Assembly (NCBI RefSeq): GCF_012516315.1
Contig: NZ_CP051185.1
Span: 3,413,363 to 3,477,362 of the forward strand
Origin: Limnospira fusiformis SAG 85.79
GTDB taxonomy: Bacteria; Cyanobacteriota; Cyanobacteriia; Cyanobacteriales; Microcoleaceae
Reading direction: 5' to 3'
DNA: 64,000 nucleotides
The position numbers were made by a program, and so were the translations under genes. The notes under the pieces were generated by a model that made no database searches, was not told the origin of the DNA, and was given only the letters and a program-made list of their open reading frames with translations. Shown piece by piece: positions 6,057-64,000 of the stretch (position 1 is its first letter; each line of letters starts with the position of its first letter).

Positions 6057-7196
6057 CTATAAGGTGGCTATACATTCTATTTGCACTCGTGCATTTTCCG
6101 GGAGTTGCGACACCGCTACACAGGTACAAATTGGCAGATTTCCATCGGTGAAATAGCTAGAGTAAACGCTATTCATGCGATCGCTTTCCTGCAAGTCTAC
6201 CATAAAAATCGTCGTTTTCACCACCTTAGACCAACCTACTCCCGCCGCCGTTAAAATCGCGCCAATATTATCCATCACTCGCCGCGTCTGGTCGGTAATT
6301 TCGTCATCGCATAACATAATATTTAGGCGGGGGGCTATGGCTATTTGACCCGCAATATATATACAGTCATTAATGATAACTGCTTGGTGAGGACTATTAG
6401 GAGATTTCGGCGCGTTTTCTGTATTAATAAATTCTGCCTTAGTCGAGTTTCTCCCAGACTCCCCCACTTCCATAATCAAATCATCATCGAGGTCATAAAC
6501 TTCACCGTCTGGCATAATTGCGCCAATGATTTGAGCTTCTTGATAGTTAGTTAGGTACAAATTGGCATCAGTTAAATTGGCTCCGACAAAACTCGCATTT
6601 TTAACTTTGGCTTTCATTAGATTAGCTGTTTTGATGTTAGCTTGCTTGAAATTAGCCCCCTCTAAACAAGTCTCTCTCAAGATGGCTTCCTCTAGATTTG
6701 CCATTTTAAAATTACATTTTTTGCAGTTAGCTGCAGCCAAGTTGATGCGGAATCCATAAATGCCAGAAAAATTACATCCTTCTAAATCCAAATACGACCA
6801 ATTTATGGAAAACATTTTACTACCAGAAAAATTAACATTTTTGATTATAGCTTTAGCCATGTTAATATCATCAAATCGACTAGATTCCTCGAATTGAGCC
6901 CCGGTTAAATCTGCCCCAGAAAAATCTATGGTTTGCAAATCAGACTTGATAAAACAGGCGTTAGTTAAGTTGGCATTAACAAATTGTACGGATTGGAAAG
7001 TTGACCCACTAAAGTTACAATTCTTGAGATTAGCATGATCAAAGGTCATCTCTTGAAAGTCAGAGTTGCTTAAATCAGCACCTTCTAAGTTAATCTCACT
7101 CAAATTACATCCTTTCCAAGTAGTATAAGATAAATCGACTCCGGGGAAGTCGCGTTCACCTAGTTTGTATCTGTCAAACAATTTTTGTGCTTCCAT
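6057..7196 (-). CDS. pentapeptide-repeat protein fused to a C-terminal RidA/YjgF (enamine/imine deaminase) domain, copy 1
   Basis: N-terminal half is A(N/D)LxxxxF pentapeptide repeats. C-terminal ~125 aa is RidA-like (HQAVIINDCIYIAGQIAI...DNIGAILTAAG...TTIFM). Confidence 0.8.
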   Translation of the reverse strand: MEAQKLFDRYKLGERDFPGVDLSYTTWKGCNLSEINLEGADLSNSDFQEMTFDHANLKNCNFSGSTFQSVQFVNANLTNACFIKSDLQTIDFSGADLTGAQFEESSRFDDINMAKAIIKNVNFSGSKMFSINWSYLDLEGCNFSGIYGFRINLAAANCKKCNFKMANLEEAILRETCLEGANFKQANIKTANLMKAKVKNASFVGANLTDANLYLTNYQEAQIIGAIMPDGEVYDLDDDLIMEVGESGRNSTKAEFINTENAPKSPNSPHQAVIINDCIYIAGQIAIAPRLNIMLCDDEITDQTRRVMDNIGAILTAAGVGWSKVVKTTIFMVDLQESDRMNSVYSSYFTDGNLPICTCVAVSQLPENARVQIECIATL

Positions 7197-7301
7197 TTTC
7201 AGTTAGTCCTGGTAGATGTGGTTTTGACCCTATCCCAGAGTAGATATCTGCTGGGTATCGCACTATCAATTATATCTGATTATACGCCAATAGTGCATTT
7301 T

Positions 7302-8441
7302 TTAGGTGCTGGCTATACATTGGATTTGGACTCGGGCATTTTCCGGGAGTTGCGACACGGCTACACAGGTACAAATTGGCAGATTTTCATTTGTGAAATA
7401 GCTAGAGTAAACGCTATTCATGCGATCGCTTTCCTGCAAGTTTACCATAAAAATGGTGGTGGTAACCACCTTAGACCAACCTACTCCCGCCGCCGTTAAA
7501 ATCGCGCCAATATTATCCATAACTCGCCGCGTCTGGTCGGTAATTTCGTCATCACATAACATAATATTTAGGCGGGGGTCTATCGCTATTTGACCCGCAA
7601 TATATATACAGTCATTAATGATAACCGCTTGGTGAGGACTATTAGGAGATTTCGGCGCGTTTTCTGTATTAATAAATTCTGCCTTAGTCGAGTTTCCCCC
7701 AGACTCCCCCCCTTCCACAATCGAATCATCATCAGGGTCGTAAACTTCACCGTCTGGCATAATTGCGCCAATGATTTGAGCTTCTTGATAGTTAGTTAGG
7801 TACGAATTGACATCAGTTAAATCGGCTCCTATAAAACTAGCATTTTTAAGTTTTGCTTTCATCAGATTAGCTTTTTTGAGCTTGGCTTGCTTTAAATTAG
7901 CCCCCTCTAAACAAGCCTCTCTGAAGATGGCATTTTCGAGGTTTGCCAGTTTAAAATTGCAGTTTTTGCAGTTAGTTTCTGTCCAATTAGTTCCATGTAA
8001 ATTAGTTTTATAAAAGCTACATCCTTCTAAGTCTAAAAAAGACCAGTTTACGTCGCTAAATTTAACTTTGTCAAAATTGACATTTTTGGTGATGGCTTGA
8101 GCGATTTCACAACAACTAAATTGACGACATTCTCCGAATTGCGCTCCGGTTAAATCTGCCCCAGAAAAATCTATGCCGCGCAAATCAGACTGGATAAAAT
8201 AGGCGTTAGTTAAATCGGCATTAACAAATTTTACGGATTGGAAATTTGACCCACTAAAGTTACAATTCTTGAGATTAGCCCTATTAAAAACCATATTTTT
8301 CAATTCAGAGTTGCTGAAATCAGCACCTTCTAGGTTAATCTCACTCAAATTACATCCTGGCCAATTAGTATCAGATAAATCGACTCCGGGGAAGTCGCGT
8401 TCACCTTGTCTGTATCTGTCAATTAATTCTTGTGGTTTCAT
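7302..8441 (-). CDS. pentapeptide-repeat::RidA fusion protein, copy 2
   Basis: Paralog of 6057..7196. The RidA half is near-identical and the pentapeptide half is diverged. Confidence 0.8.
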   Translation of the reverse strand: MKPQELIDRYRQGERDFPGVDLSDTNWPGCNLSEINLEGADFSNSELKNMVFNRANLKNCNFSGSNFQSVKFVNADLTNAYFIQSDLRGIDFSGADLTGAQFGECRQFSCCEIAQAITKNVNFDKVKFSDVNWSFLDLEGCSFYKTNLHGTNWTETNCKNCNFKLANLENAIFREACLEGANLKQAKLKKANLMKAKLKNASFIGADLTDVNSYLTNYQEAQIIGAIMPDGEVYDPDDDSIVEGGESGGNSTKAEFINTENAPKSPNSPHQAVIINDCIYIAGQIAIDPRLNIMLCDDEITDQTRRVMDNIGAILTAAGVGWSKVVTTTIFMVNLQESDRMNSVYSSYFTNENLPICTCVAVSQLPENARVQIQCIAST

Positions 8442-8546
8442 TTTCAGTTAGTCCTGGTAGATGTGGTTTTGAGCCTATCCCAGAGTAGATATCTGCTGGG
8501 GATGGCACTATCAATTATATCTGATTATACCCCCATAGTGGATTTT

Positions 8547-9686
8547 TTAGGTGCTGGCTATACATTGGATTTGCACTCGTGCATTTTCCGGGAGTTGCGA
8601 CACCGCTACACAGGTACAAATTGGCAGATTTCCATCCGTGAAATAGCTAGAGTAAACGCTATTCATGCGATCGCTTTCCTGCAAGTTTACCATAAAAATG
8701 GTGGTGTTCACCACCTTAGACCAACCTACTCCCGCCGCCGTTAAAATCGCGCCAATATTATCCATAACTCGCCGCGTCTGGTCCGTAATTTCGTCATCAC
8801 ATAACATAATATTTAGGCGGGGGTCTATCGCTATTTGACCCGCAATATATATAAAGCCATTAATGATAACTGCTTGGTGAGGACTATTAGGAGATTTCGG
8901 CGCGTTTTCTGTATTAATAAATACTGCCTTAGTCGAGTTTACCCCAGACTCCACCCCTTCCACAATCGAATAATCATCAGGGTCGTAAACTTCACCGTCT
9001 GGCATAATTGCGCCAATTATTTCAGCTTCTTGATAGTTAGACGCATAAACATAAGCATTAGTTAAATTGGCTCCGATAAAACTAGCATTTTTAACTTTGG
9101 CTTTCATCAGATTAGCTTTTTTGAGGTTGGCTTGCTTTAAATTAGCTCCCTCTAAACAAGTGTCTTTTAAGATAGCATTTTCGAGAATTGCCATTTTAAA
9201 ATTGCAGTTTTTGCAGTTAGAATTAGCTAAGTTTATGCAGGTTCCATTGATGCGAGAAAAATTACAGCCTTCTAAATCAAAAAGCGACCACTTTATCCCA
9301 GTCATATTAATGCCAGAAAAATTGACATTTTTGATAATAGCTTTAGCCATATTAATATCACTAAATCGACTAGATTCCTGGAATTGAACCCCGGTTAAAT
9401 CTGCCCCAGAAAAATCTATGGCGCGCAAATCAGACTCGATAAAACAGGCGTTAGTTAAATCGGCATTAACAAATTCTACGAATTGCAAAGTTGACCCACT
9501 AAAGTTACAATTCTTGAGATTAGCCCTATTAAAAGTCATATTTTTAAAGTCAGAGTTGCTGAAATCAGCACCTTCTAAGTTAATCTCACTCAAATTACAT
9601 CCTTGCCAAGTAGTATAAGATAAATCGACTCCGGGGAAGTCGCGTTCACCTAGTTTGTATTTGTCAAGCAATTCTTGTGGTTGCAT
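8547..9686 (-). CDS. pentapeptide-repeat::RidA fusion protein, copy 3
   Basis: Paralog of 6057..7196, with the same 1245-bp phasing. Confidence 0.8.
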   Translation of the reverse strand: MQPQELLDKYKLGERDFPGVDLSYTTWQGCNLSEINLEGADFSNSDFKNMTFNRANLKNCNFSGSTLQFVEFVNADLTNACFIESDLRAIDFSGADLTGVQFQESSRFSDINMAKAIIKNVNFSGINMTGIKWSLFDLEGCNFSRINGTCINLANSNCKNCNFKMAILENAILKDTCLEGANLKQANLKKANLMKAKVKNASFIGANLTNAYVYASNYQEAEIIGAIMPDGEVYDPDDYSIVEGVESGVNSTKAVFINTENAPKSPNSPHQAVIINGFIYIAGQIAIDPRLNIMLCDDEITDQTRRVMDNIGAILTAAGVGWSKVVNTTIFMVNLQESDRMNSVYSSYFTDGNLPICTCVAVSQLPENARVQIQCIAST

Positions 9687-42582: not shown

Positions 42583-42592
42583 CCGCTGGGGG

Positions 42593-42622
42593 TTGACAAG
42601 TTTTGGCGACTTATCATATAAT
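42593..42622 (+). promoter_or_regulatory. consensus sigma-70-type promoter (TTGACA-18-TATAAT) with no ORF downstream
   Basis: TTGACA at 42593..42598 and TATAAT at 42617..42622. It points toward the 3' end/antisense of cysH. A perfect 9-bp inverted repeat TTGTAACAA-11-TTGTTACAA lies at 42747..42775. Confidence 0.45.
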
Positions 42623-42849
42623 ATTGACATATTCTTTTTTCATAATTGGAATGTTTTAGTCAAAAAAAAAATGTGTATTTCCCCATTATATAAATAATAC
42701 CACAGCCTCACCCCAAAATCAAGACGCGACCCCCAACCAGAAATTTTTGTAACAATTATTAATTTTTTGTTACAAAAGTTAATCTAATTATCAGAATAGA
42801 CCGATACCGGGGAATCGCCCTGGGTGTAACCATAACAGGCGGGACTATG

Positions 42850-43798: not shown

Positions 43799-44932
43799 TT
43801 ACGCGACATTTTTCCGGTTGTTCCCGGACAATGCAACGATAGCACTATTACCCGTTAAGGTAACAGAGGCGGTATCCCGCAAAGCTTTTAGAAAGATTCC
43901 AAAAGCACCGTTCCAGTCCCTAGGTAGAGTGAACCCACACTCCGGACATCGGAACACTTTTGAGCCACCTAGCTGGGAATGCACATGACCACAGTGAGTA
44001 CAGGTTTTGCTGGTGTATTCTTCCGTCACATCTACAACTGTGGTTCCAGTTATTTCCCCTTGATGTCTCAGGGTTAGTTTGAATCGATAATGCGCCCATG
44101 TCAGCATGGCGCGGGCAGTCTTAGACCTGATTAGACGCTTCACCTTGGCAACCATATCGGAAGTCTCGAAGGTGGGCAAAAAAATTAGGCTGTAGTTGTG
44201 AGTCAAGTAGTGAGCAATTTGTTTGTGGGCTTCATCAACTAGATTGCGGATTTTGGTTCTCATTCGTTGAGCCGCTTGCCTCATCCGTCGCCTCCTTGAA
44301 CGACAGGGTTCCTTGGCGATTCGGCTCATTAAATCATCCAAATGTTGACATAGCCTAGTAATGCGTCCAATATCCCCGGAGCCCAATTCCAGAAATCGTG
44401 AACCATCAAACCCGGTTATGAAAGTTCGCACACCCGGGTCTAATGCAATCACGCCAGTAGCGTCAGTTGGGGTAACGGCAACTGGTTCAGGGAAAATCGC
44501 CAACCATCGACCTTTGGTAAACACCAACTGAGTCCCTTGCCCGCAAGTTTTAGGGATGGGTTCGGAAACCATGAAAGTTAATCCTTTCGTGAGTCTTGGA
44601 TACCAACTCCCTGAAGAGAAATTAGCATCGTTAAACTTGATGGCTTGAGAACTATCCCGACAGCTCCTAAACCTTGCGCCAGGACTGGCTGAAAAGGCGA
44701 GATAGGCATCAAAGATAGCATTCTGCCGAATGTGGCAGGGTGTTTCTTTGACCCATGCAGGCAAGTCGCTCTGCATCACTTCGTTGCGTAATTTCAGTTT
44801 GCTTAGTCGTTTACCACTCCGGGATAATGCAATTGCTTGGTTGTAGCAATACCGACAAGCGGCCAACCATTTGCGCCAGACTTGATTTAGCTCGGGGCTG
44901 GGGTAAATCCGGATCTTCTTTGACCTGAGTTT
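43799..44932 (-). CDS. tnpB: TnpB (OrfB_IS605, RuvC-like + zinc ribbon) of the IS607-like element
   Basis: KIRIYPSPELNQVWRKWLAACRYCYNQAI N-terminus; RuvC motifs; C-terminal CTHCG...CPECG zinc finger. No canonical ATG at the expected start, so translation may be coupled to the tnpA frame. Confidence 0.75.
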   Translation of the reverse strand, partial: KLRSKKIRIYPSPELNQVWRKWLAACRYCYNQAIALSRSGKRLSKLKLRNEVMQSDLPAWVKETPCHIRQNAIFDAYLAFSASPGARFRSCRDSSQAIKFNDANFSSGSWYPRLTKGLTFMVSEPIPKTCGQGTQLVFTKGRWLAIFPEPVAVTPTDATGVIALDPGVRTFITGFDGSRFLELGSGDIGRITRLCQHLDDLMSRIAKEPCRSRRRRMRQAAQRMRTKIRNLVDEAHKQIAHYLTHNYSLIFLPTFETSDMVAKVKRLIRSKTARAMLTWAHYRFKLTLRHQGEITGTTVVDVTEEYTSKTCTHCGHVHSQLGGSKVFRCPECGFTLPRDWNGAFGIFLKALRDTASVTLTGNSAIVALSGNNRKNVA

Positions 44933-45480
44933 TGTATTTACTCCGTCCGTATAATCGGGAACTGAAGCAGTGGAGGATGGCGAGGATGTCCTCAACCATT
45001 TCTGGTTCTGGACTGAGACTTGTCTGGTTGAGAACCATGAGTGAACACCTGTTTTGCTCACAGAGCCATCGAAACAAGTCAAATCCCCATATTGCCAATC
45101 AGTCTTTGTGGGCAACGACAACCATGCCGACATCTCCTGACAAATGATGTCCCAGTAAGGCCAGCATTTTCTTTCCCTTGAAGTTGAGCCCGCCTCGGAT
45201 TTCTGAGACGACTTCTGCTTCGGGGTAGAGGTTGGACAGTGCGGCCACCTGTCGGTTGAGGTCTGACTGCTGGGCGCGGCTACTAACTCTGGCATAGATA
45301 ACGACTTTGCGTTTGTCACTGCCTGATTTGGCAGCAGTATATCACTCAACGTTGTATCGTCGTTGCCCAGCGGGGGTTCTGATGGTCTCGATTGAGCCAT
45401 TGTCGTCCCATCTGCGGAGTGTTCTTTCATGGACTCCAAGGATTTGGGTGGCTTCCTTGGGTTTGACATATCTGGCAATA
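44811..45480 (-). pseudogene. tnpA: IS607-type serine recombinase tnpA, disrupted
   Basis: Frame B reads ...RRYNVE*YTAAKSGSDKRKVVIYARVSSRAQQSDLNRQ...VVVAHKD*. It then shifts to the 95-aa ORF RLARFGFDLFRWLCEQ...ILHCFSSRLYGRSKYK (resolvase catalytic Ser in YARVSS). Confidence 0.7.
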
Positions 45481-46079
45481 GGTTTATCCTCAACCCTTCT
45501 CGCTTATTATACTGTATTGCCCTAAAATATTAACCGAATTTGTGATTAAATCATGCTCTCTCCACGCTAAAGCAACGGAGATTCGGGAATGAACCAAAAG
45601 TTCTCACAGGCGTAGTCAAAGCGCCCCTATAGGTAGCCATAAGGCTTCCCTTTACTTTTTTTCGATGTCCCTTTTGCCTCTCGCCGATGAAACCACTTTG
45701 CTACCGACATTTCTGCATTATGCAAGTCTGCCCTCACGGGATGTTAAGCCCCTTTCATTCGGGTCTTAGAGAAGGCAGTTATATGATACCATAGCACCCG
45801 CCGGCGTAAGCACGCCTGTCGCTTTTCCTCCCCGTTAAAGAGACGGGGCTACCAAGCCACCGAGCTTTCAGCGTGTTGAGATCTTAAAACTTCCAGCAGT
45901 AGCCGTGGTGCAACCCACAGAATCAATCGTCCGGTATGATGACTTATCCGCAGTCCCCACAGCGGGTTTAGGCATAACCCAAACAAATCTTACCCAAAAA
46001 TTCCCTGAGCAACTACCCTTGTTTTGACGCTCCCCGCTCTAAATAGACGGGGATTCTTCATTCATAGACTTGCCATAAT

Positions 46080-49315: not shown

Positions 49316-49390
49316 CCCTATCCCATAACCCCTATGCCATAGGCCATAACCCATAACCCCTATCCCATAACCCCTATGCCATAGGCCAAT
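49316..49390. repeat. short tandem repeat (CCCATAA / CCCCTAT[C/G]CCATAGG units)
   Basis: cccataacccctatgccataggccataacccataacccctatcccataacccctatgccatagg; STRR-like heptamer-based repeats. Confidence 0.6.
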
Positions 49391-50473: not shown

Positions 50474-52471
50474 CTAGCGAATGTACTTTTTAAGAATACT
50501 ATTGCGATCGGAATGGCGGAGTTTACGCAACGCTTTAGCCTCAATTTGGCGAATGCGTTCGCGAGTCACATTAAAAATTTTGCCGATTTCTTCAAGAGTT
50601 TTCATCCGCCCATCATCGAGCCCGTAACGAAGTCGCAGGATATCCCGTTCACTGGGGCTTAATGTATCTAAGACACTTTCAAGATCTTCGCGCAACAACT
50701 TTTTAGAGACTTGAGCTTCAGGGGTTTCACCATCAGATTCAATGAAATCCCCCGGCTCTGGCTCTTCGGTAGGTGGGGGCGGTTCCTCAACTACAGAGGA
50801 GGATTCCAACTGTTCCGCATACTCTATATATGCTCCTCCCAATGACCTTAAAACCTGAGCCGTTACCCGGGCAAAAGCGATCGCATTCCCCTGAACTTCC
50901 CCTTCCCCTAACTGTTGCGGATTTCTCAAAATCGCCCCAAAATCTTCTACCGCAAAGCCCAAATTCCTCGCCACATAACCAGAAATCTCATCAATCACCC
51001 TCACCGTCTCATCCACCGGCATCAACTCTAACAATAACTCCCGGACTCCCGGCATAAAATCATATTGCACCAACTCTGGGTCAGTATCGATATTAATCTC
51101 CGATATCGGCTGCAATAACCCACCCAAAAACACCTCCGCTACATGGACTGGCAACGACTCTTTTAACAAATTTTCCTGAATCAACCGCACCACAGGTAAG
51201 GTAATCACAGGGGCTGCCGCCAACAACCCGGCTAATTTCCGCCCTACCCGAGAAGCCGTTGCCCGAAACCCGTTTACCCGCTTTTCCGCCGTCAATTCTC
51301 CCCCAGAATTGGGTCTGCGCCTCCGTCCTTGATGTTCTGCACACTTAAATAGATATCCTGCCGCCCAAACTTTACCTTTCCCCGCCAATAATCGCGCCCA
51401 AGTCCCTACGGATTCCGGTTCTAAGGTAAAAATCGGCACTTTCACCACCGAATGAGCCACTTCCTCATCCCACCACAAGGGGAATTCATCAACCTTTAAA
51501 TTCTGATTCCAATCTCCGGGATTGAGTCCCTGTAACCTCACCAACGCTTCCCAACCTAAACCGCTTCTTTTCCACATCCATTCAGGCAGCATCTGCAAAA
51601 TAGCCATCGACCCCCGTTTCGCCCACAGGTCTAAAATGGGAGTCATTTTCCCCTCTCGCCACACTTTCGAGACACAATCACTCACCACAATCACTAACCG
51701 TCGCCCAGTGGGGTCGATTAATTCCTTGGGACTGCGAGGGGCTTGATGTTTCGCCGTTGCCCCAATCCCCCGCCGAATTTTGACCGCTTCCGGGTTATCG
51801 GTGAGCAAACTCCAAACTCGGACATCTCGGAAAATTCCATAGTTCTTGAGGAGTTTTTCTAAGTCTCGCAGGGTATGCCGCCACAGCAACATCGAGAGGG
51901 AATCCTCAATCACTAAATCTAAGTCTAACCAAGGTTCTAGGCGAGGTTTTAAAACCGGAATCCAAATCCCTTGGCTGGCAATTTGTTCGCTAGTGGCGAC
52001 TTCATCAATCACCCAATCTCGTCCCCCAGAAACTCGACGCATCAGGGGTTTTAAGGCTCTGGCTAAGGTCAGAGGTTCCCGGAGTGAGGGGGCATCGGAA
52101 ACTCGAATGGGTAAACCCCCTCCACCCGCAGCGGTTTGACTGGGTTCCGGTTTAGGGACAATTTCCCCTTGGGGCGGTTGGGGGGTTGCTGGGGTAGCAG
52201 GGGCAGGAGGTTGGTTTTCTGGGAGATTCTCTGGAGGGGTTGTGGCGGAATCCTCTGGGGTAGGGGGTTGAGGGGCTGGTTCTGTGGGCGGTTGGGATGA
52301 ACTGCTGCTGTCGGTGGGGGGTTCAGCCCCAGGAGAAGCACTGGCTTCCTCTGGGGGGGTTACAGATTCAGAATATTGGTCAATGTGGCAAGCCAGCCAA
52401 AAGACATCCGCAATATCTTGGGCGGAGAGTTGAAATTCCTGTTGTAAGGCTTGAACCAAGTCGGGATTCAT
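50474..52471 (-). CDS. MoxR-associated protein: Pro-rich N-terminal linker, possible vWA-like middle region, C-terminal sigma-70 region 3.2-4 module
   Basis: The last ~95 aa ([92 protein letters not shown]) are near-consensus group 1/2 sigma region 3.2 + 4.2. The start ATG overlaps the MoxR stop (ATGA). Confidence 0.6.
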
Positions 52472-53553
52472 TAGTCTTCTGAACTGTTCAGATACTTCAT
52501 TAAGATTGTTACCAAATCTTGCTCGTCGCTGACTTCCGGTTTTAAGTCTCGCGTCACCATATAAATGGCATTTAAGAGTTGGTCGGTGGCGAGGTCTCCC
52601 TGGCTGCGACGCTTGATAAACTGGTCGATGAGTTGATTAATTTTTGCGGGGTTTTGGGTGAGGCTATCTTCCCCTAAATGGGCTTCGACAATTTCTTTTA
52701 AGGCGGTAGAATTGGGTTGATAGGGCATGGATAGTCTTAAACAACGCCGGAGAAAAGCTGGGGGAAAATCCCGTTCTCCATTGTTGGTGAGGATAATCAA
52801 GGGAAAGTTACAGCAGCGAATTTTCCCATTTTGGACGGGAACTGAAATTCCATCAGCGGTGGTGACTTCGACTTGATTTTGCTCTGGGCTAATGCGGGCG
52901 AGTTCGGGAATGGGGAATTCCCCTTCTTCAAATAGGTTGAGGAGGTCGTTGGGGAGGTTGATGTCACTTTTATCAATCTCATCGATGAGTAGAACTCTGG
53001 GACGATGAGCGGGTAAGAGGGCGGTTCCTAATGGACCGAGGGTGATGTAACGACCGATATCTTTACTTTGGTCGCCCATTTGAACGTCCTGGAGACGGGC
53101 GATCGCATCATAACGATAGAGTCCATCTTGCAAGGTGGAACGAGCGGTAATATACCACGGCAACACCGGACCCAGTTTCAATTCGTAAGCCACCGCATAG
53201 GCTAAGGAGGTTTTCCCCGTTCCCGGTTTCCCGGTTACTAACAGGGGTCGCCTCAGATATAAGGCAGCATTGACCATATTCACCACCCGATTTTGCTCCT
53301 GGGTCTCAGGGCTATGAATCCGAAAACTTTTCCCCCGTTTTTGGTCGCGAGTTTCCGAGTCCAAAGTCTGTAAAAAATCGTTCCAGCGGCTGGCAATTTC
53401 TGCCACCAAACTCTCTTCTACTCCCGTAAACTGTCGCCAACTCGGAGGCGGCGGCAATTTCTCAATCCCATCATGGGGGTCATGATTTCCTTGAAAGATT
53501 TTCCAGGTGTTCATAGGGTTAGGTGGGTTATTCTCCGGGTTGCATGAGTTCAA
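52471..53553 (-). CDS. MoxR-type AAA+ ATPase (AAA_5)
   Basis: Walker [16 protein letters not shown]; Walker [12 protein letters not shown]; sensor regions; ~100-aa N-terminal extension. Confidence 0.8.
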
Positions 53554-55681
53554 TCATCATCTCAGGGGTGAGACGATAAGGGTCTTCCCAGAGAAAGCCT
53601 AAATGACATCCGAGATGATCGGGTCCATTTCCTCGGGATTGCGATCGCAGTTCTTGGACTGACTCCGTTAACTGACGCAAAGGGCGACAGGTGAGGAGTT
53701 GATTGATACTCTCAGCATAGTTGGAATTGGCATCAGGGCATCGGGGCCAAAGGGCGATCGGTGTTGCTGCTTGTAACATGGCTTTGACTAAAACCTGGAA
53801 CTGCTCAGAGGCGGTGGGACAAGTCAGCTTTAAGCCTATTTTCTGGGTTAATTGGTGGGGCAGTTGCCGAGAGTTGAAGCTGTGGAGGTCTTCTAGGCTC
53901 TCAAAACTTTCTAACGGGGGATATTGGTCTAAAATCTGGCTGACTTTCCCCCAGTTTTCATACCACTGATTGAGGTAATTGTCAAGATAATCGAGATTTA
54001 ATCGTTCAAGCGATCGCACTCGCAGTCCGTACCTCATTCCCCAACAAAATTCACTATCAATGGGGTCAAATTCTAATTGCCATTGGTCAACTTCGGTACT
54101 GAGAAACTCTTGGGGCAAAAACACTTCAATAGTTAAATGATACCGCTTTCCTCTCAGCAACTTTAAGGCTTTTCTGAGACATTGATTTAACACACTCTGA
54201 ATCTCCGCCTGAGTACAACTTAACCCATATTCCCCAGGTTCATCTAACAGCGGCTTAAACGCGGTATTGGGGTCATTTTGGATTAAGGAATTATCCTTCA
54301 CTAGCCAAGCCTTGACGATGAATTGCTCAGACTTTTTCTGGGACTCCACAGTAACCAGCACATAAGACTCTAAGGGATGGGGTAAATTATCGGCTTCTTT
54401 CTGGGATGTCTGATTTTCCAATAAGTTTAAGAATTTATCTAAGCATTGATACCGCAAAATCTGGGTCAAGCTGCTGAGTTCAGAAGGTGAAAATTTATCC
54501 TCTAAAATAGCATCATCTGGTAATTCAGTATGGGCAAACTCTATGACATCTTTATCATAACCAATACCCTGCAATATTTGAAGAATTTGTTGCGATATCC
54601 CTTCAAAATTCATAGGTTTTCTATCTTCAAACATCCCAGGAATGGGGAGGATAGTCGATGATTTTAATAGAGTTTTGATTTCCTCAATCCCTTGATTGGC
54701 TTGGTCAACCCCGGCTTGAAGTTCTTCAAGTTGCCAGGGAATGCTCTGTAAAATCTCTCGAATACTGCCATAACTCGACTCAAGGCTTGCGGAAATCTCT
54801 CGCAGGGTTTGCCGTTGTTGTTCTTCGCTAACCTCCTTAAGTTTACCCTGTAAGTCATCAAAATGTTGTTGGATTTTGGCAAACTCTAGAATCTGATAGG
54901 CTTGACTGGCTTCGCCGTCATTTTTGAGTTGCAGTAATTGGCTTAAAACACTTCCAAACTGAGTATTTTGCTGTTCATTTAGCCCAGCCAAGTCAGTCTG
55001 CAACCTGGTCAGTAAATCCAACATTAACCCCGCGAAAGCCTTACCATCTTCGGCAAAATCTTCCTTGAGGGTTTGACGGAAGGCTTGGGGGAACTCATCA
55101 TAAAGCAATTCGGAGACTGTGGCAGAAACTCCATCAGGAAACTGAAATCCTCCACCCGGACAGGCTTCCATATTCAGCCGTCTAAAAATATCTTGCCAAT
55201 CTTCCAGTTCCAGGATTTCATCACCCTTTGGAATCAGGATATCTGGGAGTTTACCCTCACCAAGTTCTGGGTATCTTTCCGATTCTCCTGTCTCTTCATT
55301 TAGCCAACGACTCCATAAATCTACCCATTTGTCGGGGGTGATTTCGGCAATCTTCAGAAGATGGTGACGAGTCTTTCTATCATGCTTAAACTTAGGGACG
55401 GCTTTATCGGTAATAATGGCGGCGATCGCTTTGCCAACGGCTTGAATTAAATCCTGGTTTTTTAAAGAAACCCCAGGATGTCCGGTGGTGGCATCCCCTA
55501 ACTCATTCGCCACATTTCCGGCTATAACTGAGCCAATAGCCTTGCAAGTTTCTCCCAAAAACTCTTGAGCCTCTGGGTTCGAGAGTAACCCCACGACACC
55601 CAAGGCTGGGGGGAATGTGCAGGTTGCAACATAGCAGGCTCCAAATACTCCCAGCCGATAGAGGGTCTTTTTGACCGCCAT
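53528..55681 (-). CDS. large uncharacterized protein (717 aa, central coiled coil), first gene of the MoxR operon
   Basis: Long ORF overlapping the MoxR start by 26 nt. Central heptad-rich region; no motif I can name. Confidence 0.5.
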   Translation of the reverse strand: MAVKKTLYRLGVFGACYVATCTFPPALGVVGLLSNPEAQEFLGETCKAIGSVIAGNVANELGDATTGHPGVSLKNQDLIQAVGKAIAAIITDKAVPKFKHDRKTRHHLLKIAEITPDKWVDLWSRWLNEETGESERYPELGEGKLPDILIPKGDEILELEDWQDIFRRLNMEACPGGGFQFPDGVSATVSELLYDEFPQAFRQTLKEDFAEDGKAFAGLMLDLLTRLQTDLAGLNEQQNTQFGSVLSQLLQLKNDGEASQAYQILEFAKIQQHFDDLQGKLKEVSEEQQRQTLREISASLESSYGSIREILQSIPWQLEELQAGVDQANQGIEEIKTLLKSSTILPIPGMFEDRKPMNFEGISQQILQILQGIGYDKDVIEFAHTELPDDAILEDKFSPSELSSLTQILRYQCLDKFLNLLENQTSQKEADNLPHPLESYVLVTVESQKKSEQFIVKAWLVKDNSLIQNDPNTAFKPLLDEPGEYGLSCTQAEIQSVLNQCLRKALKLLRGKRYHLTIEVFLPQEFLSTEVDQWQLEFDPIDSEFCWGMRYGLRVRSLERLNLDYLDNYLNQWYENWGKVSQILDQYPPLESFESLEDLHSFNSRQLPHQLTQKIGLKLTCPTASEQFQVLVKAMLQAATPIALWPRCPDANSNYAESINQLLTCRPLRQLTESVQELRSQSRGNGPDHLGCHLGFLWEDPYRLTPEMMIELMQPGE

Positions 55682-55971
55682 ATCCTGCTCCGTCTAACTC
55701 ATGGACTGATTCTACCAGAAACCGCCTAGAAATCTGATGTCTGGGGTCATGGTTTTCTGGGATTTTTGATTCCACCGGATTAACCTTCTGCTGCTGTCTG
55801 GGAATTCTTGTGCCGCTAGGCTTGACAGGTGCTGCCAAGCCATGATACTATATCTATGTACAGTTTCATAATTGAGATATTTATTCTTTAAAAAAAATTA
55901 GCAATATTCCCATTATGTAAAAGTATAGCCCAGGTTTCCCAAAAAAGCAAGGAACCCCCCCAGAAAAAAAA

Positions 55972-56008
55972 TTTTCGTAACATTTCGTAACATTTCGTAA
56001 CATTTCTT
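55972..56008. repeat. 10-bp direct repeat TTTCGTAACA x3.5 in the divergent promoter region
   Basis: ttttcgtaacatttcgtaacatttcgtaacatttc sits between the MoxR operon start (55681, minus) and the redoxin gene (56075, plus). Confidence 0.8.
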
Positions 56009-56074
56009 TACAGAAGTTAACATAATTATGAATTACATTGATAGCTAATCAAGCAGAGTAGATATGAGATTGAG

Positions 56075-56626
56075 ATGATGCTAACTTCCAATGACTTTAG
56101 TGGGTTACTGAATCAAAGATTTTTCCGAAACTTTTTACCCATTCCGGCGACTGGGACTTTACACTTAGGGAAAAAGACCCCAGACTTTGAATTACCAGAC
56201 ATCACGAATAATGGGAAAGTGCGTCTGTCTGAATACCGAGGTAATACGCCTGTTATTCTGGCGTTTACGCGAATTTTTACGGAAAAGCAGTATTGTCCCC
56301 TATGCTACCCCCACATAAAAGCTCTCAATGAAAATTATGCAGCTTTTGTGGAGCGTGGCGCTGAAATATTGATGATTACCAGTACAGACACAGCACAAAG
56401 CCAGACCGTGGTTAAAGATTTAGGTCTAAAAATGCCGTTGTTAAGTGATTCTAGCTGTGGTATTTTCCGACTTTATCATGTAGGTCAAGCCTTGGGCGCA
56501 CCTCTTCCGGCTCAATTTGTTTTAGACCGTGAGGGAATCTTACAATATCGCCATTTATTTTCGTTTCTTGAACCCAATGCGACAGTCCCTAAACTGCTGA
56601 GTGTTCTGGATGAACTAGCTAATTAA
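56075..56626 (+). CDS. AhpC/TSA-redoxin family thiol-disulfide oxidoreductase
   Basis: Thioredoxin-fold with a CPLC motif; GNTPVILAFTRIF... Confidence 0.65.
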   Translation: MMLTSNDFSGLLNQRFFRNFLPIPATGTLHLGKKTPDFELPDITNNGKVRLSEYRGNTPVILAFTRIFTEKQYCPLCYPHIKALNENYAAFVERGAEILMITSTDTAQSQTVVKDLGLKMPLLSDSSCGIFRLYHVGQALGAPLPAQFVLDREGILQYRHLFSFLEPNATVPKLLSVLDELAN

Positions 56627-61881: not shown

Positions 61882-62119
61882 TCTCACCCCATACACAAAC
61901 CACCCCCTGTCTCTATATCGGCTATTGTGTTAATTTATGTAACAAAAAATTAAGAAGTGTTAGAAAAAACGGCTTTTTGGCACTGGGGGGGTTGATTTTG
62001 TAGGTGGCTCGTGGTACTATGTTACATAATGGGAATGTTAGCAATTTTATTTTTTGGGTCAATTATCCATTATGCTATAAACTATATGTCAATAGCCTAT
62101 CACGACTCGACAACAGTTG

Positions 62120-64000
62120 TCAACCCCCAGAATGATTCAACCATTGTTGAAAGACAAGATTTCTGTCATCATCAGGGATAAGTAATTGATAGACCCGATG
62201 TCGTTTTTTGGCATAAGTTTCGAGACGATCGCATTTTAAGCCATAGCCAATTTGATCAAGAAAGCGACTTAATACCATAATGGGGGTAGATCGTGGTGCT
62301 AACCCTATTCCGATAATAGACTTAATAGCAGTGCGATCGCCTAAAGCCAGCTTCGCCATTTGCTGTAAATCAGGATCAGTATTTTTAAACTCCCGATTTT
62401 CCTGTTGTAATAAAGTAGGAAAGCGTAATAATTCCAGAGTAGCGACGACCGCGCCTAATTGCGATCGGTTAAAATCAGGACCAAATAAACTACCTTTTCC
62501 TCGTTGTCCCAAATCCTGTGCTATTCGCGCATCTCTCGCGGACAGGAAAGGGCGACCCACAGTTAAGAAATAATGCAATTTTAATTTTTCATACCATCCC
62601 TGGTCATCCTTAGTTATCAATTCAGGATTAACGGGAATACCATAGCGCAATTTTAACTGATGTTTGCGTAAAGATTGACTTTCAGCAGGAGTTTTAAACA
62701 CTTTTTTTTGCAAAACATGATATGCCAAATCACTTAAATCTGTAGCGTTAGATATAGCCCAGCATTCGGTCTGATAATTGCGATCGCGCACAGCGTCAAT
62801 CAAATCAGTTAAACTAGGTTTAAGGTGATGGTCAGCCACCAAATCAGAATCAGAAGTTTCGCAAGGGGGAGAAACGGGTGATAATTGATGACCTTCAGCT
62901 TCCAAGCCAGCCAATACAGATTCCCGATAGCGGGTCATAGTAGCATTAAACCGGACGGCAATTTTAGCCCAACACATTAAAGACTCAGCTTGAAACCCCA
63001 TTTCCAAATCATCAAAATCATCAAAATCTGACTGTTGTAATAAACGAATGTTTAACTGAGTTAAGCGATGGCTACAACTCAGCAGGGAAGCCATAGATAA
63101 AGCGCCATTTCCCAACCTATTTAAACCGTGGGAAGCTATCCACAGATGTCGAGGTATATTTTCGCGAATTCTAGCCAAAGCCTGACGCACAGAATTTTCA
63201 GATTGAACCCCTTGGGCGATACCCCATACGGAGGTAAAATGACCTTTTAAATCAATACTCACCCCAGTTTCAATAGCAGGGGAAGCCAAAACCAGATCAT
63301 AATCTGCTAAAATATGATTAAGTCGGTTGATGCAACCGTAGGCGGGATGATGAGGGTCAGCCAAAGACTGGGAATCAATACGGAGGATTTTCAGTTGAGG
63401 AAATTGCGCTTTAAAATAGGCTTCTAAGGTGGAAGTCCCCCACTTACTAGCTAACTTTTGGGCGGACAAACACACAAAGGGACGACCGCCATTAGCGAGA
63501 TGATTTTCTAGGTCTTTAACTAATTGTTTAGGAGTATGACCGCCATAGTGATAAACATTCCAAGCCTGATCAGCAGCAGGTCGAAAATGGTTTTCGATAA
63601 TAAAGGGAGTTAGGGGAATTCCCGATAAGGCTTTGAGATAATCAATAGTAGTATCACTGAGGTCAGCATCAGCGATAACTACCCGACCATTGGACATGAA
63701 GACATTTTGCAATAAAACTTTTAGCGATCGCAATATAGCGACTCGATATTGGCGACAGGTGTCGGAATTTAGACCATGCCAAATTATCTGTTCAACTTCA
63801 TCAAAAATCACCAAAGTATTAGACCAATTATTGGGGTTAAAACCCAGGGAGGAAGAGGGATGCAGGGAATCAATACATAATCCATAACCCTCCCCAGGAC
63901 GACTGATAACCGTCCCCATTCCGGCTTTCATATAGTTTAAACCAAACCGCTGACAGAGAGATTCTACTAAGCGGATACGATGACCGATAACCAGGACAGA
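62120..64000 (-). CDS. partial CDS (N-terminus beyond window): large protein, possibly plasmid-type replication/primase-helicase-like (CyRepA-like)
   Basis: The ORF stays open upstream of the annotated Met to the window edge (SVLVIGHRIRLVESLCQRFGLNYMKAG...). Family assignment is by gestalt only. Confidence 0.35.
   Translation of the reverse strand, partial: SVLVIGHRIRLVESLCQRFGLNYMKAGMGTVISRPGEGYGLCIDSLHPSSSLGFNPNNWSNTLVIFDEVEQIIWHGLNSDTCRQYRVAILRSLKVLLQNVFMSNGRVVIADADLSDTTIDYLKALSGIPLTPFIIENHFRPAADQAWNVYHYGGHTPKQLVKDLENHLANGGRPFVCLSAQKLASKWGTSTLEAYFKAQFPQLKILRIDSQSLADPHHPAYGCINRLNHILADYDLVLASPAIETGVSIDLKGHFTSVWGIAQGVQSENSVRQALARIRENIPRHLWIASHGLNRLGNGALSMASLLSCSHRLTQLNIRLLQQSDFDDFDDLEMGFQAESLMCWAKIAVRFNATMTRYRESVLAGLEAEGHQLSPVSPPCETSDSDLVADHHLKPSLTDLIDAVRDRNYQTECWAISNATDLSDLAYHVLQKKVFKTPAESQSLRKHQLKLRYGIPVNPELITKDDQGWYEKLKLHYFLTVGRPFLSARDARIAQDLGQRGKGSLFGPDFNRSQLGAVVATLELLRFPTLLQQENREFKNTDPDLQQMAKLALGDRTAIKSIIGIGLAPRSTPIMVLSRFLDQIGYGLKCDRLETYAKKRHRVYQLLIPDDDRNLVFQQWLNHSGG

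Follow-up and report, generated by a model that had tools for sequence, protein, structure and literature searches.

The OmpR-family response regulator RpaB recognizes HLR1, a direct repeat of the form KTTACAWW-N2-KTTACAWW with a 10-bp period, and where this site stands with respect to the start of transcription (TSS) governs its effect, i.e., sites centred between -66 and -45 activate and sites centred between -38 and +23 repress (PMC6525291, PMC13421787). At the RpaB-repressed PsrR1 promoter, HLR1 spans the region from -35 to -10 (PMC6525291). HLR1 sites have been reported to be functional in either orientation, and in Synechocystis one thiol peroxidase, Bcp/Slr0242, is predicted to be repressed by RpaB. 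Here we analysed a 64-kb stretch of DNA from Limnospira fusiformis SAG 85.79 (NZ_CP051185.1), hereafter called the window, whose positions are used for all coordinates. It contains a tandem array of 10-bp units directly ahead of a gene for a redoxin of the AhpC/TSA family. We propose that this array is a row of tandem operator half-sites for an OmpR-family regulator, with RpaB as the candidate, that covers the proximal promoter of the redoxin gene, and on the strength of the sequence comparisons described below we give this reading a probability of about 0.5.

Contiguous rows of half-sites are known from the OmpR sites F1-F2-F3 and C1-C2-C3 of Escherichia coli (ompF and ompC) and from the Pho boxes of PhoB/SphR, the half-sites measuring 10 bp for OmpR and 11 bp for PhoB. 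These rows have a TTTAC- or GTTAC-like core and adjoin or replace the -35 element, and their regulators fill them in a hierarchical, cooperative manner along a single DNA face. The array can be likened to them, although they belong to other organisms and regulators and their number of sites is fixed, whereas here it is polymorphic. By analogy with these rows, and as an HLR1-class half-site, the unit itself appears to be a known kind of site. In our literature search we found no description of rows that combine four to five half-sites in mixed orientation, of half-site rows on a dispersed element of ~215 bp with three promoter-like modules, or of unit-number variation between copies and strains. 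The iterons of plasmids and phages are, like the array, direct and helically phased protein-binding units, but they have units of 17-22 bp, a Rep initiator, an AT-rich unwinding region and DnaA boxes. A replication-origin iteron was rejected as an explanation because the unit is 10 bp long, the flanking genes encode VMAP-C and the redoxin, the site is chromosomal in complete Arthrospira genomes, and there is no plasmid or phage similarity. An earlier sequence-only reading of this DNA had used the word iteron, which in its replication sense does not apply to a chromosomal intergenic site with a 10-bp unit and no rep gene.

A row of HLR1-like half-sites ahead of a redoxin gene

The sequence-only reading had described an exact 10-bp repeat before the MoxR and redoxin genes, with an A8-T4 tract ahead of it, and both observations proved sound. 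Tandem Repeats Finder returned 3.4 copies with a period of 10 and 100 % matches (on the minus strand the exact repeat reads GTTACGAAAT x3), and at least 24 consecutive matches at a lag of 4-30 occurred once in the window (at lag 10, in the repeat) and in 0 of 200 windows simulated with a Markov-1 model. The A8-T4 tract occupies positions 55964-55975, with C7-AG further 5'. The identical five-unit sequence is present in an independent assembly (Logan SRR13447461), and the five-unit repeat is therefore not an assembly artefact. Neither the exact 10-mer nor the 8-mer TCGTAACA has a second site in the window. As to the extent of the repeat, the exact part had been placed correctly, but two diverged units had been missed: the 10-bp register runs on past 56006 through a TTTACA and a TTAACA hexamer and reaches 56022 (Table 1). 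Identity at lag 10 across 55973-56026 amounts to 80 %, compared with 15-44 % at other lags. The location in a divergent intergenic region, between the VMAP-C gene on the minus strand and the redoxin gene on the plus strand, was likewise right, while its length is 393 bp (55682-56074) and not 394 bp.

It had also been proposed that the 10-bp phasing suits cooperative binding of a regulator to one face of the DNA. This is in keeping with the units themselves, which match HLR1/RpaB-type half-sites of the OmpR family, likewise 10-bp direct repeats. We scored HLR1 by its published consensus and not by a weight matrix. For the pattern KTWACA-N4-KTWACA, 0.12 matches would be expected in the window and five were found; the array accounts for four, and the fifth is in copy C of the dispersed element described below. 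With up to two mismatches, HLR1 itself has 12 matches (3.4 +/- 2.0 expected), of which six overlap each other in the array. GTAAC is the reverse complement of GTTAC, and units 1-3 accordingly read GTTACGAA on the minus strand, an HLR1 sequence in which the A at position 6 is replaced by G; the TTTACA and TTAACA units read as half-sites on the plus strand. In ~49 kb of other Arthrospira DNA, all HLR1 matches with at most one mismatch fall within copies of the element.

The array and HLR1 have in common the direct repetition of 8-nt half-sites, the 2-nt spacer and the 10-bp period, and several orthologous alleles as well as the copies of the element found near moaA are perfect HLR1 matches, whereas the window allele itself fits the consensus approximately. 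The predicted position over the -35 to -10 region is that of the RpaB-repressed PsrR1 site, and a thiol peroxidase, Bcp, is among the predicted RpaB targets. The array differs from HLR1 in the number of consecutive half-sites, which is four to five and not two, in their mixed orientation (in the window three minus-type units followed by two plus-type units), in its TTACG and TAACA variants and in being carried on a dispersed repeat. Sites for NtcA (GTAN8TAC), CRP (TGTGAN6TCACA) and LexA (RGTACNNNDGTWCB) were considered and had no match in 55940-56075 on either strand, and the same was true of the Pho box (two YTTAAYYW with an 11-bp period). An exact-sequence search of the literature for four array strings returned no paper, and a search for TSS maps of Arthrospira, or for any account of this repeat, gave nothing usable.

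The end of the array lies 53 bp from the redoxin ATG, whereas the distance to the VMAP-C ATG is 296 bp, and the array overlaps a promoter-like site facing the redoxin gene (P2, GTAACA-N18-CATAAT). These two results speak against the assignment of the repeat to the promoter of the MoxR operon, as had been made by the sequence-only reading, and the redoxin gene is the likely target of the array. The predicted TSS of P2 is at ~56033, and most strains carry TTTACA as the P2 -35 element, which is better than GTAACA. In the predicted geometry of P2, the HLR1-like pairs are centred at ~-28 and ~-18 and fall within the repressing range of -38 to +23.

We suggest the following mechanism. The array would be a row of 10-bp-spaced half-sites, expanded in the window allele, for a winged-helix response regulator of the OmpR/PhoB family. 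Dimers of this regulator, lined up next to each other along the same helical face, would cover the -35 element and the spacer of P2 (-35 at 55997, -10 at 56021), and their cooperative occupancy, most plausibly by RpaB, would occlude the redoxin promoter. Since sites in this range repress under the HLR1 rule, the redoxin would be off in low light or under reduced conditions and would be released by high-light or redox stress.

A half-site shared with 2-Cys peroxiredoxin promoters

Outside Arthrospira, the redoxin gene lies directly 3' of a 2-Cys peroxiredoxin (prx) gene in at least 68 of 79 loci. A block ~100 nt before the prx ATG is conserved across Oscillatoriales and Nostocales (tCAAAATCGTTATGAGTATGATata-GTCGTAACAG(A/T)TCGTAA(A/T)), and the sequence 3' of this block diverges freely. 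The first part of the block, CAAAATCGTTATGAGTATG, resembles a FurC/PerR box, matching CAAAATCATAACGACTTTG at 16 of 19 positions and overlapping the -10 element TATGAT. Both this FurC box and prxA as a FurC target have been described (PMC10406281), and the 2-Cys prx gene has also been reported as a PerR target in S. elongatus. The second part, which follows directly after the -10 element, is a 10-bp-spaced direct repeat, TCGTAACAnnTCGTAA, and was found in 53 other cyanobacterial loci.

The reverse complement of this direct repeat, TTTACGAnCTGTTACRAN, is HLR1-like. HLR1 with at most two mismatches was present in the prx promoters of 18/68 loci (26 %) compared with 1.5 % of shuffles, and with at most three mismatches in 37/68 loci compared with 15 % of shuffles. 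The heptamer TCGTAAC is ~23-fold enriched in the prx promoter zone. In 758 kb, the pattern NTTACRW-N3-KTTACRWN had 76 matches, i.e., 53 in prx promoters, always on the same strand and in the same place, 20 in copies of the element, two in the window array and one elsewhere. Altogether, these matches suggest that prx promoters hold a second, HLR1-like operator next to the PerR box; no paper naming the direct repeat beside the FurC/PerR box was found in our literature search.

Of the 18 positions of the prx operator TTTGTAACAGTTCGTAAA, 15 are identical in the unit pair TTCGTAACATTTCGTAAC of the window, which has the same strand orientation with respect to the redox gene that follows. The two sites share the 8-mer TCGTAACA, the strand with respect to the redox genes and the 10-bp spacing, and the genes downstream include the redoxin ortholog. 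They differ in that the prx operator has two half-sites located just 3' of the -10 element (around +1 to +20), with a PerR box upstream as its partner, whereas the window array has three copies and two diverged units, lies upstream of or over its promoter, and belongs to a gene that is separated from prx. In Arthrospira the redoxin gene is detached from prx, a GSDH-family gene now stands behind prx, and the prx operator is degenerate in Limnospira. The redoxin thus occurs with the same cis half-site in two genomic arrangements, which is the best argument for assigning the array to the redoxin gene and not to the MoxR operon.

The prx locus itself varies among these strains. A group II intron (RVT_N, RVT_1, GIIM and HNH; positions 1034-2841 of the loci) lies upstream of the 2-Cys prx gene, directly 5' of the remaining TCGTAACA half-operator of that gene, in A. 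platensis NIES-39, in Paraca and in a third A. platensis assembly. The Limnospira strains have a tRNA-like sequence and a different promoter in place of this intron.

Strain alleles, the dispersed element and the surrounding genes

We compared the locus with ten other Arthrospira genomes that encode an identical redoxin protein and with A. platensis PCC 7345, whose redoxin is 98 % identical; the identical protein was found on 25 Arthrospira contigs. All 11 of these strains have four units, not five. The four-unit alleles read GTAACA-TTTACA-TTTACA-TTAACA (with two sub-alleles), GTAACA-GTAACA-TGTACA-TTAACA and GTAACA-TTAACA-GTTACA-TTAACA, and all of them keep the 10-bp register and the invariant ACA. 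Five strains carry TTTACATT-TC-TTTACATA at the position of the array, which matches HLR1 at 16/16 positions, and three further strains are one base away from this perfect sequence. Among the eleven strains, six columns vary in the ~347 bp of the 393-bp region that lie outside the array, compared with four single-nucleotide polymorphism (SNP) columns and the window-specific 10-bp insertion within the 46 bp of the array. The changes in the array fall on hexamer positions 1-3 and on the first spacer base, and ACA is constant.

As the other strains have four units and the variation is concentrated in the array, the perfect 3.4-fold repeat is a young allele that slippage or conversion produced from an older array of four units. 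What makes the repeat exact is a 10-bp duplication confined to this strain and not a feature under conservation, and the perfect tandem identity in itself means nothing special. The fifth unit of the window is a 10-bp slippage allele: a slipped-strand event or conversion duplicated one unit, and the same process alters the unit number in other copies of the element. Compared with the common allele, the window allele has GTAACA in place of TTTACA as the -35 element and one extra minus-type half-site, and it should therefore differ quantitatively from the four-unit alleles.

As judged from alignments, the array forms the 3' part of a non-coding dispersed element of ~215 bp. The window holds copies A, B and C (nhmmer E-values from 1e-50 to 1e-55, mean column identity 69 %), with copy B containing the repeat. 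The copies share one order of features, namely the promoter-like site P1, an inverted repeat, the leftward promoter-like site P3, a C-run, A-run and T-run that is kept in all copies, and the hexamer array, which in terminal copies is followed by a -10-like [CT]ATAAT. P1 (GGGGG-TTGACA-N18-TAnnnT) occurs in every copy and matches the consensus at 12/12 positions in copy A. P3 reads TTGMYT-N17-TAnnnT across the copies, often with TG, and the scan placed it in copy A at TTGATT-17-TATTAT with TG. The inverted repeat reads CATAATTGGAAT / ATTCCCATTATG across the copies. The arrays of copies A and C are 100 % conserved among six strains each. At 42742-42780 in copy A, the first and third hexamers lie in a 14-nt inverted repeat that is 93 % complementary (AATTTTTGTAACAA / TTGTTACAAAAGTT, 11 nt apart), so that arrays of this type may equally be taken for a divergent pair of perfect half-sites.

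Further copies were reached through a metagenome pattern scan, which returned one true element locus and four chance matches, and through a protein search with a spurious open reading frame (ORF) inside the element. The region upstream of moaA in Limnospira contains up to 11 copies within 12 kb, partly arranged as tandem pairs and interleaved with duplicated PQQ-propeller genes. The arrays of these copies have the form TTCACAAAAC(TTTACAAAAC)n, in which n varies between copies, and they read TTTACAAA-AC-TTTACAAA, a perfect HLR1. In the tandem pairs, the perfect HLR1 ends ~17 nt before the -35 element of the P1 of the next copy, which puts its centre at ~-62. The copy closest to moaA has three or four units depending on the strain. 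Since the unit number varies both between copies and between strains, its instability is a general property of the element family.

Searches for a product of the element were negative. Rfam gave no match in the window at the gathering threshold and no credible match in copy A at E-values up to 10, a scan of the window for tRNA and tmRNA found none, RNAalifold on eight diverged copies gave 0 consensus pairs, and six-frame translation of five copies met stops in all frames and revealed no shared ORF. The idea that the P3 transcript encodes a type I toxin-like peptide was rejected, as the peptide length ranged from 2 to >40 aa and was not conserved. No intrinsic terminators were found in the two convergent intergenic regions that hold copies A and C. 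With respect to mobility, the element is multi-copy, and an inverted end repeat, the 9-nt GGGGGTTGA, was seen in copy C alone. Target-site duplications were not seen, there was no presence/absence polymorphism (in the 6-11 strains compared, loci A, B and C always contain the element), BLAST against plasmids and phages gave no real match, and a scan of viral contigs gave chance matches only.

Small modular intergenic repeats with promoters or variable sub-repeats include the Correia elements of Neisseria, the BOX elements of Streptococcus pneumoniae and the NsiR1 tandem array of Nostoc. The element described here is similar in being ~200 bp long, non-coding, intergenic, multi-copy and sometimes tandem, and in combining promoter-like boxes with a variable internal sub-repeat. 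Unlike these repeats, to which it has no sequence relationship, it contains an array of putative regulator sites, and neither a conserved RNA structure or small RNA nor long terminal inverted repeats or target duplications were seen.

On the other side of the intergenic region, the VMAP-C gene is the first of an operon on the minus strand (50474-55681), in which it is followed by genes for an AAA_5/MoxR-like ATPase of 360 aa and for a 665-aa fusion of SAV_2336-N and sigma-70 region 4 that has weak similarity to anti-phage MzaA. The operon looks like a vWA-MoxR-associated conflict or defence system. Its VMAP-C gene varies by strain, encoding 716, 717 or 761 aa, and is split in GCA_025200965.1. 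Upstream of the 3' neighbour of the sigma-70 region 4 fusion gene, an intergenic tandem repeat of CCCTATCCCATAAC (x4.9, also readable with a period of 7 as CCCATAA) occupies 49316-49383 and is flanked by HIP1 sites. HIP1 (GCGATCGC), a cyanobacterial signature, occurs at 69 sites in the window compared with 0.4 expected. Elsewhere in the window, a 379-aa gene with pentapeptide repeats and an L-PSP/RidA endoribonuclease domain is present in three tandem copies with a period of 1245 bp (6057-9686, minus strand), each with a 30-bp internal repeat (Tandem Repeats Finder, 7834-7901 and 9079-9147). A gene for a 564-aa IS605-family OrfB/TnpB with a Cas12f-like TNB domain (43799-45493, minus strand) adjoins a PAPS-reductase gene and is absent from this position in some strains; the exact 564-aa protein had no record in the public collection.

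Table 1. Features of the array, the redoxin promoter region, the dispersed element and the divergent gene, in window coordinates
Feature	Position	Strand	Description or source
Exact tandem repeat	55973..56006	+	TTTCGTAACA x3.4; Tandem Repeats Finder
Full array	55977..56022	+	Five hexamers in strict 10-bp register: GTAACA 55977, 55987, 55997; TTTACA 56007; TTAACA 56017
C7-AG-A8-T4 tract before the array	55955..55975	+	C7 55955-55961, A8 55964-55971, T4 55972-55975
P2, promoter-like, towards redoxin	55997..56026	+	Scan: -35 = array unit 3 GTAACA, N18, -10 CATAAT 56021-56026
Weak FurC/PerR-box-like 19-mer	56054..56072	-	CAATCTCATATCTACTCTG; 5 mismatches to the Anabaena FurC/PerR box CAAAATCATAACGACTTTG; ends 2 nt before the redoxin ATG
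Redoxin gene	56075..56626	+	AhpC/TSA-Redoxin family, CPLC motif, ResA-like; Pfam, NCBIfam
Element copy A	42586..42797	+	Convergent intergenic; array GTAACA 42749, TTAATT 42759, GTTACA 42769, TTAATC 42779
Element copy B, holds the repeat	55817..56035	+	nhmmer E 2.7e-50; alignments
Element copy C	61914..62129	-	Convergent intergenic; array CTAACA, TTAATT, GTTACA, TTAACA (61963..61928, minus)
P1, near-consensus promoter-like	55822..55851	+	TTGACA-N18-TACTAT, with TG; 5' end of element; predicted TSS ~55858
Inverted repeat in element	55859..55925		Block 2 CATAATTG... / block 3 ...TTCCCATTATGTAA; 23-nt arms, 74 % complementary
P3, leftward promoter-like	55922..55950	-	TTGCTT-N17-TATACT; predicted TSS ~55915; transcript sense to VMAP-C/MoxR operon
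VMAP-C gene, 717 aa	53528..55681	-	First of operon, divergent neighbour; Pfam, NCBIfam

Competing explanations and biological meaning

Several points weigh against an RpaB-type operator at the redoxin promoter. We infer which protein binds, where transcription starts and in which direction regulation runs, and both the identity of the protein and the promoter positions come from matches to consensus sequences. The match to HLR1 is imperfect in the window allele, in which every HLR1 18-mer, including the best ones, carries two mismatches, and the TAACA and TTACG variants lie off the published consensus; several orthologous sites and the moaA-type sites are perfect. Since the hexamers look like a -35 box as well and contain A/T tracts in phase, part of the signal could be related to promoter function or curvature. 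A weaker alternative promoter is present by the redoxin ATG (TATGAG, 56063-56068), and such a leaderless-type promoter would possibly make the array an upstream, activating site and not a repressing one. Copies A and C are flanked by convergent genes, and it is hard to see which protein-coding gene a promoter operator would control there. Finally, our literature search found no paper linking this redoxin or 2-Cys prx to RpaB; as 2-Cys prx is a documented PerR/FurC target, the prx direct repeat could belong to another factor.

One such factor is PerR (FurC), the Fur-family peroxide sensor, which might spread along the TCGT repeats and repress the redoxin gene until it is inactivated by H2O2. 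A redoxin would be a sensible PerR target, and the 2-Cys prx gene (prxA/tpxA) is an experimentally supported one. The FurC-like part of the prx block, with its 16/19 match, lies 6 nt from the TCGTAAC direct repeat, both share a TCGT(T/A)A core, and the FurC-like 19-mer ahead of the redoxin gene, with 5 mismatches, is among the four best FurC-box matches in the 64 kb. This 19-mer is, however, not conserved in A. platensis PCC 7345, and we consider binding of the array by PerR quite unlikely, since the FurC box is a 19-bp palindrome with CAAAGTC arms, whereas the array units lack these arms and are direct repeats at 10 bp. In addition, the best FurC-box match inside the array has mismatches at 8/19 positions, and most alleles and moaA-type copies have TTTACA units without TCGT. 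A similarly low probability attaches to the idea that there is no dedicated regulator and that the units are -35-like hexamers with phased A/T tracts, which would act by intrinsic curvature or as alternative docking sites for RNA polymerase (a UP-element or promoter cluster). TTTACA, GTTACA and GTAACA do match TTGACA at 4-5 of 6 positions, tracts of T3-4 or A4 recur every 10 bp behind the A8T4 tract, and the spacer flips between T-rich (TTTC) and A-rich (AAAC) from copy to copy with the phase kept, as tract phasing alone would predict. What is invariant across copies and strains, however, is the core of the hexamer (T-W-ACA, with ACA constant) and not the tracts, and in the prx promoters of distant genera the same 8-mer stands without A-tracts directly 3' of the -10 element, where it cannot be a -35 element or an upstream bend.

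The behaviour of the element suggests another possibility, in which the array is a slippage-prone minisatellite in a dispersed, possibly mobile repeat, the hexamers serve the element itself (transposase or recombinase binding, nucleoid organisation) or nothing, and the redoxin gene is nearby by chance. The three copies in 64 kb and, ahead of moaA, as many as 11 within 12 kb, some of them in tandem pairs, are consistent with this, as are the unit number, which ranges from 2 to 4 between copies and differs between strains at two loci, the concentration of copy B variation in the array (four SNP columns and a 10-bp indel per 46 bp against six columns per ~347 bp), the position of copies A and C without a downstream gene in the same orientation, and the GGGGGTTGA carried by the element ends as short inverted repeats. 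We nevertheless hold it to be unlikely, because no transposase is associated with the element, no target-site duplications or presence/absence polymorphism at A, B and C were seen in 6-11 strains, plasmid, phage and viral collections hold no copies, and the arrays of A and C are fully conserved among strains. Moreover, if the units served the element alone, their half-site identity with the prx operator of other genera would be hard to explain. The same operator bears on the sequence-only reading, which makes the array, possibly as a target of the sigma-region-4 fusion protein, a regulatory site upstream of the VMAP-C/MoxR/sigma-r4 operon. In its favour, P3 would transcribe into the operon from a TSS at ~55915, with the array at ~-59 to -107 and GTTACGAAAT x3 at ~-59 to -86, HLR1 is reported to be active in either orientation, and a protein with SAV_2336-N and sigma70 region 4 would be expected to recognise -35-like hexamers. 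The nearest HLR1-like pair is, however, centred at ~-67, just outside the activating range of -66 to -45, the VMAP-C ATG is 296 bp away, and nothing ties the sigma-r4 protein to these sites. Similar arrays also occur at loci with unrelated neighbours and without the operon (copies A and C and the moaA copies), and the 8-mer, with its strand and spacing, recurs at prx/redoxin promoters in 53 other cyanobacteria that do not have this operon adjacent. Regulation of the MoxR operon through the array is thus very improbable.

Returning to the RpaB-type operator as our preferred reading, we also considered what the element as a whole may do. It is conceivable, though doubtful, that the ~215-bp elements are 'plug-in' promoter cassettes, with two convergent consensus-like promoters and an outward promoter under a variable RpaB-type row. 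Their dispersal and tandem duplication would have put the redoxin gene and moaA under light and redox control and would direct antisense transcripts into the 3' ends of convergent genes, such as the PAPS-reductase and M50-protease genes at copies A and C, slippage would tune operator strength between strains in the manner of a contingency locus, and the perfect sites could titrate RpaB.

The exact repeat is a detail at the level of alleles, and the element and the link to prx are the parts worth following. If the proposed reading is true, the natural four-unit alleles, such as that of PCC 8005, and the five-unit allele of the window lend themselves to a test of how half-site number relates to promoter output. 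The element would then also be a source of candidate promoters switchable by light or redox state for Arthrospira, which is grown industrially and has few genetic tools. The repeat would be the visible trace of a rewired regulon, in which a redoxin gene that had moved was re-equipped with the same half-site by a repeated module, and this would suggest that thiol peroxidases are under joint control by peroxide, through PerR, and by photosynthetic redox state, through an RpaB-type regulator.

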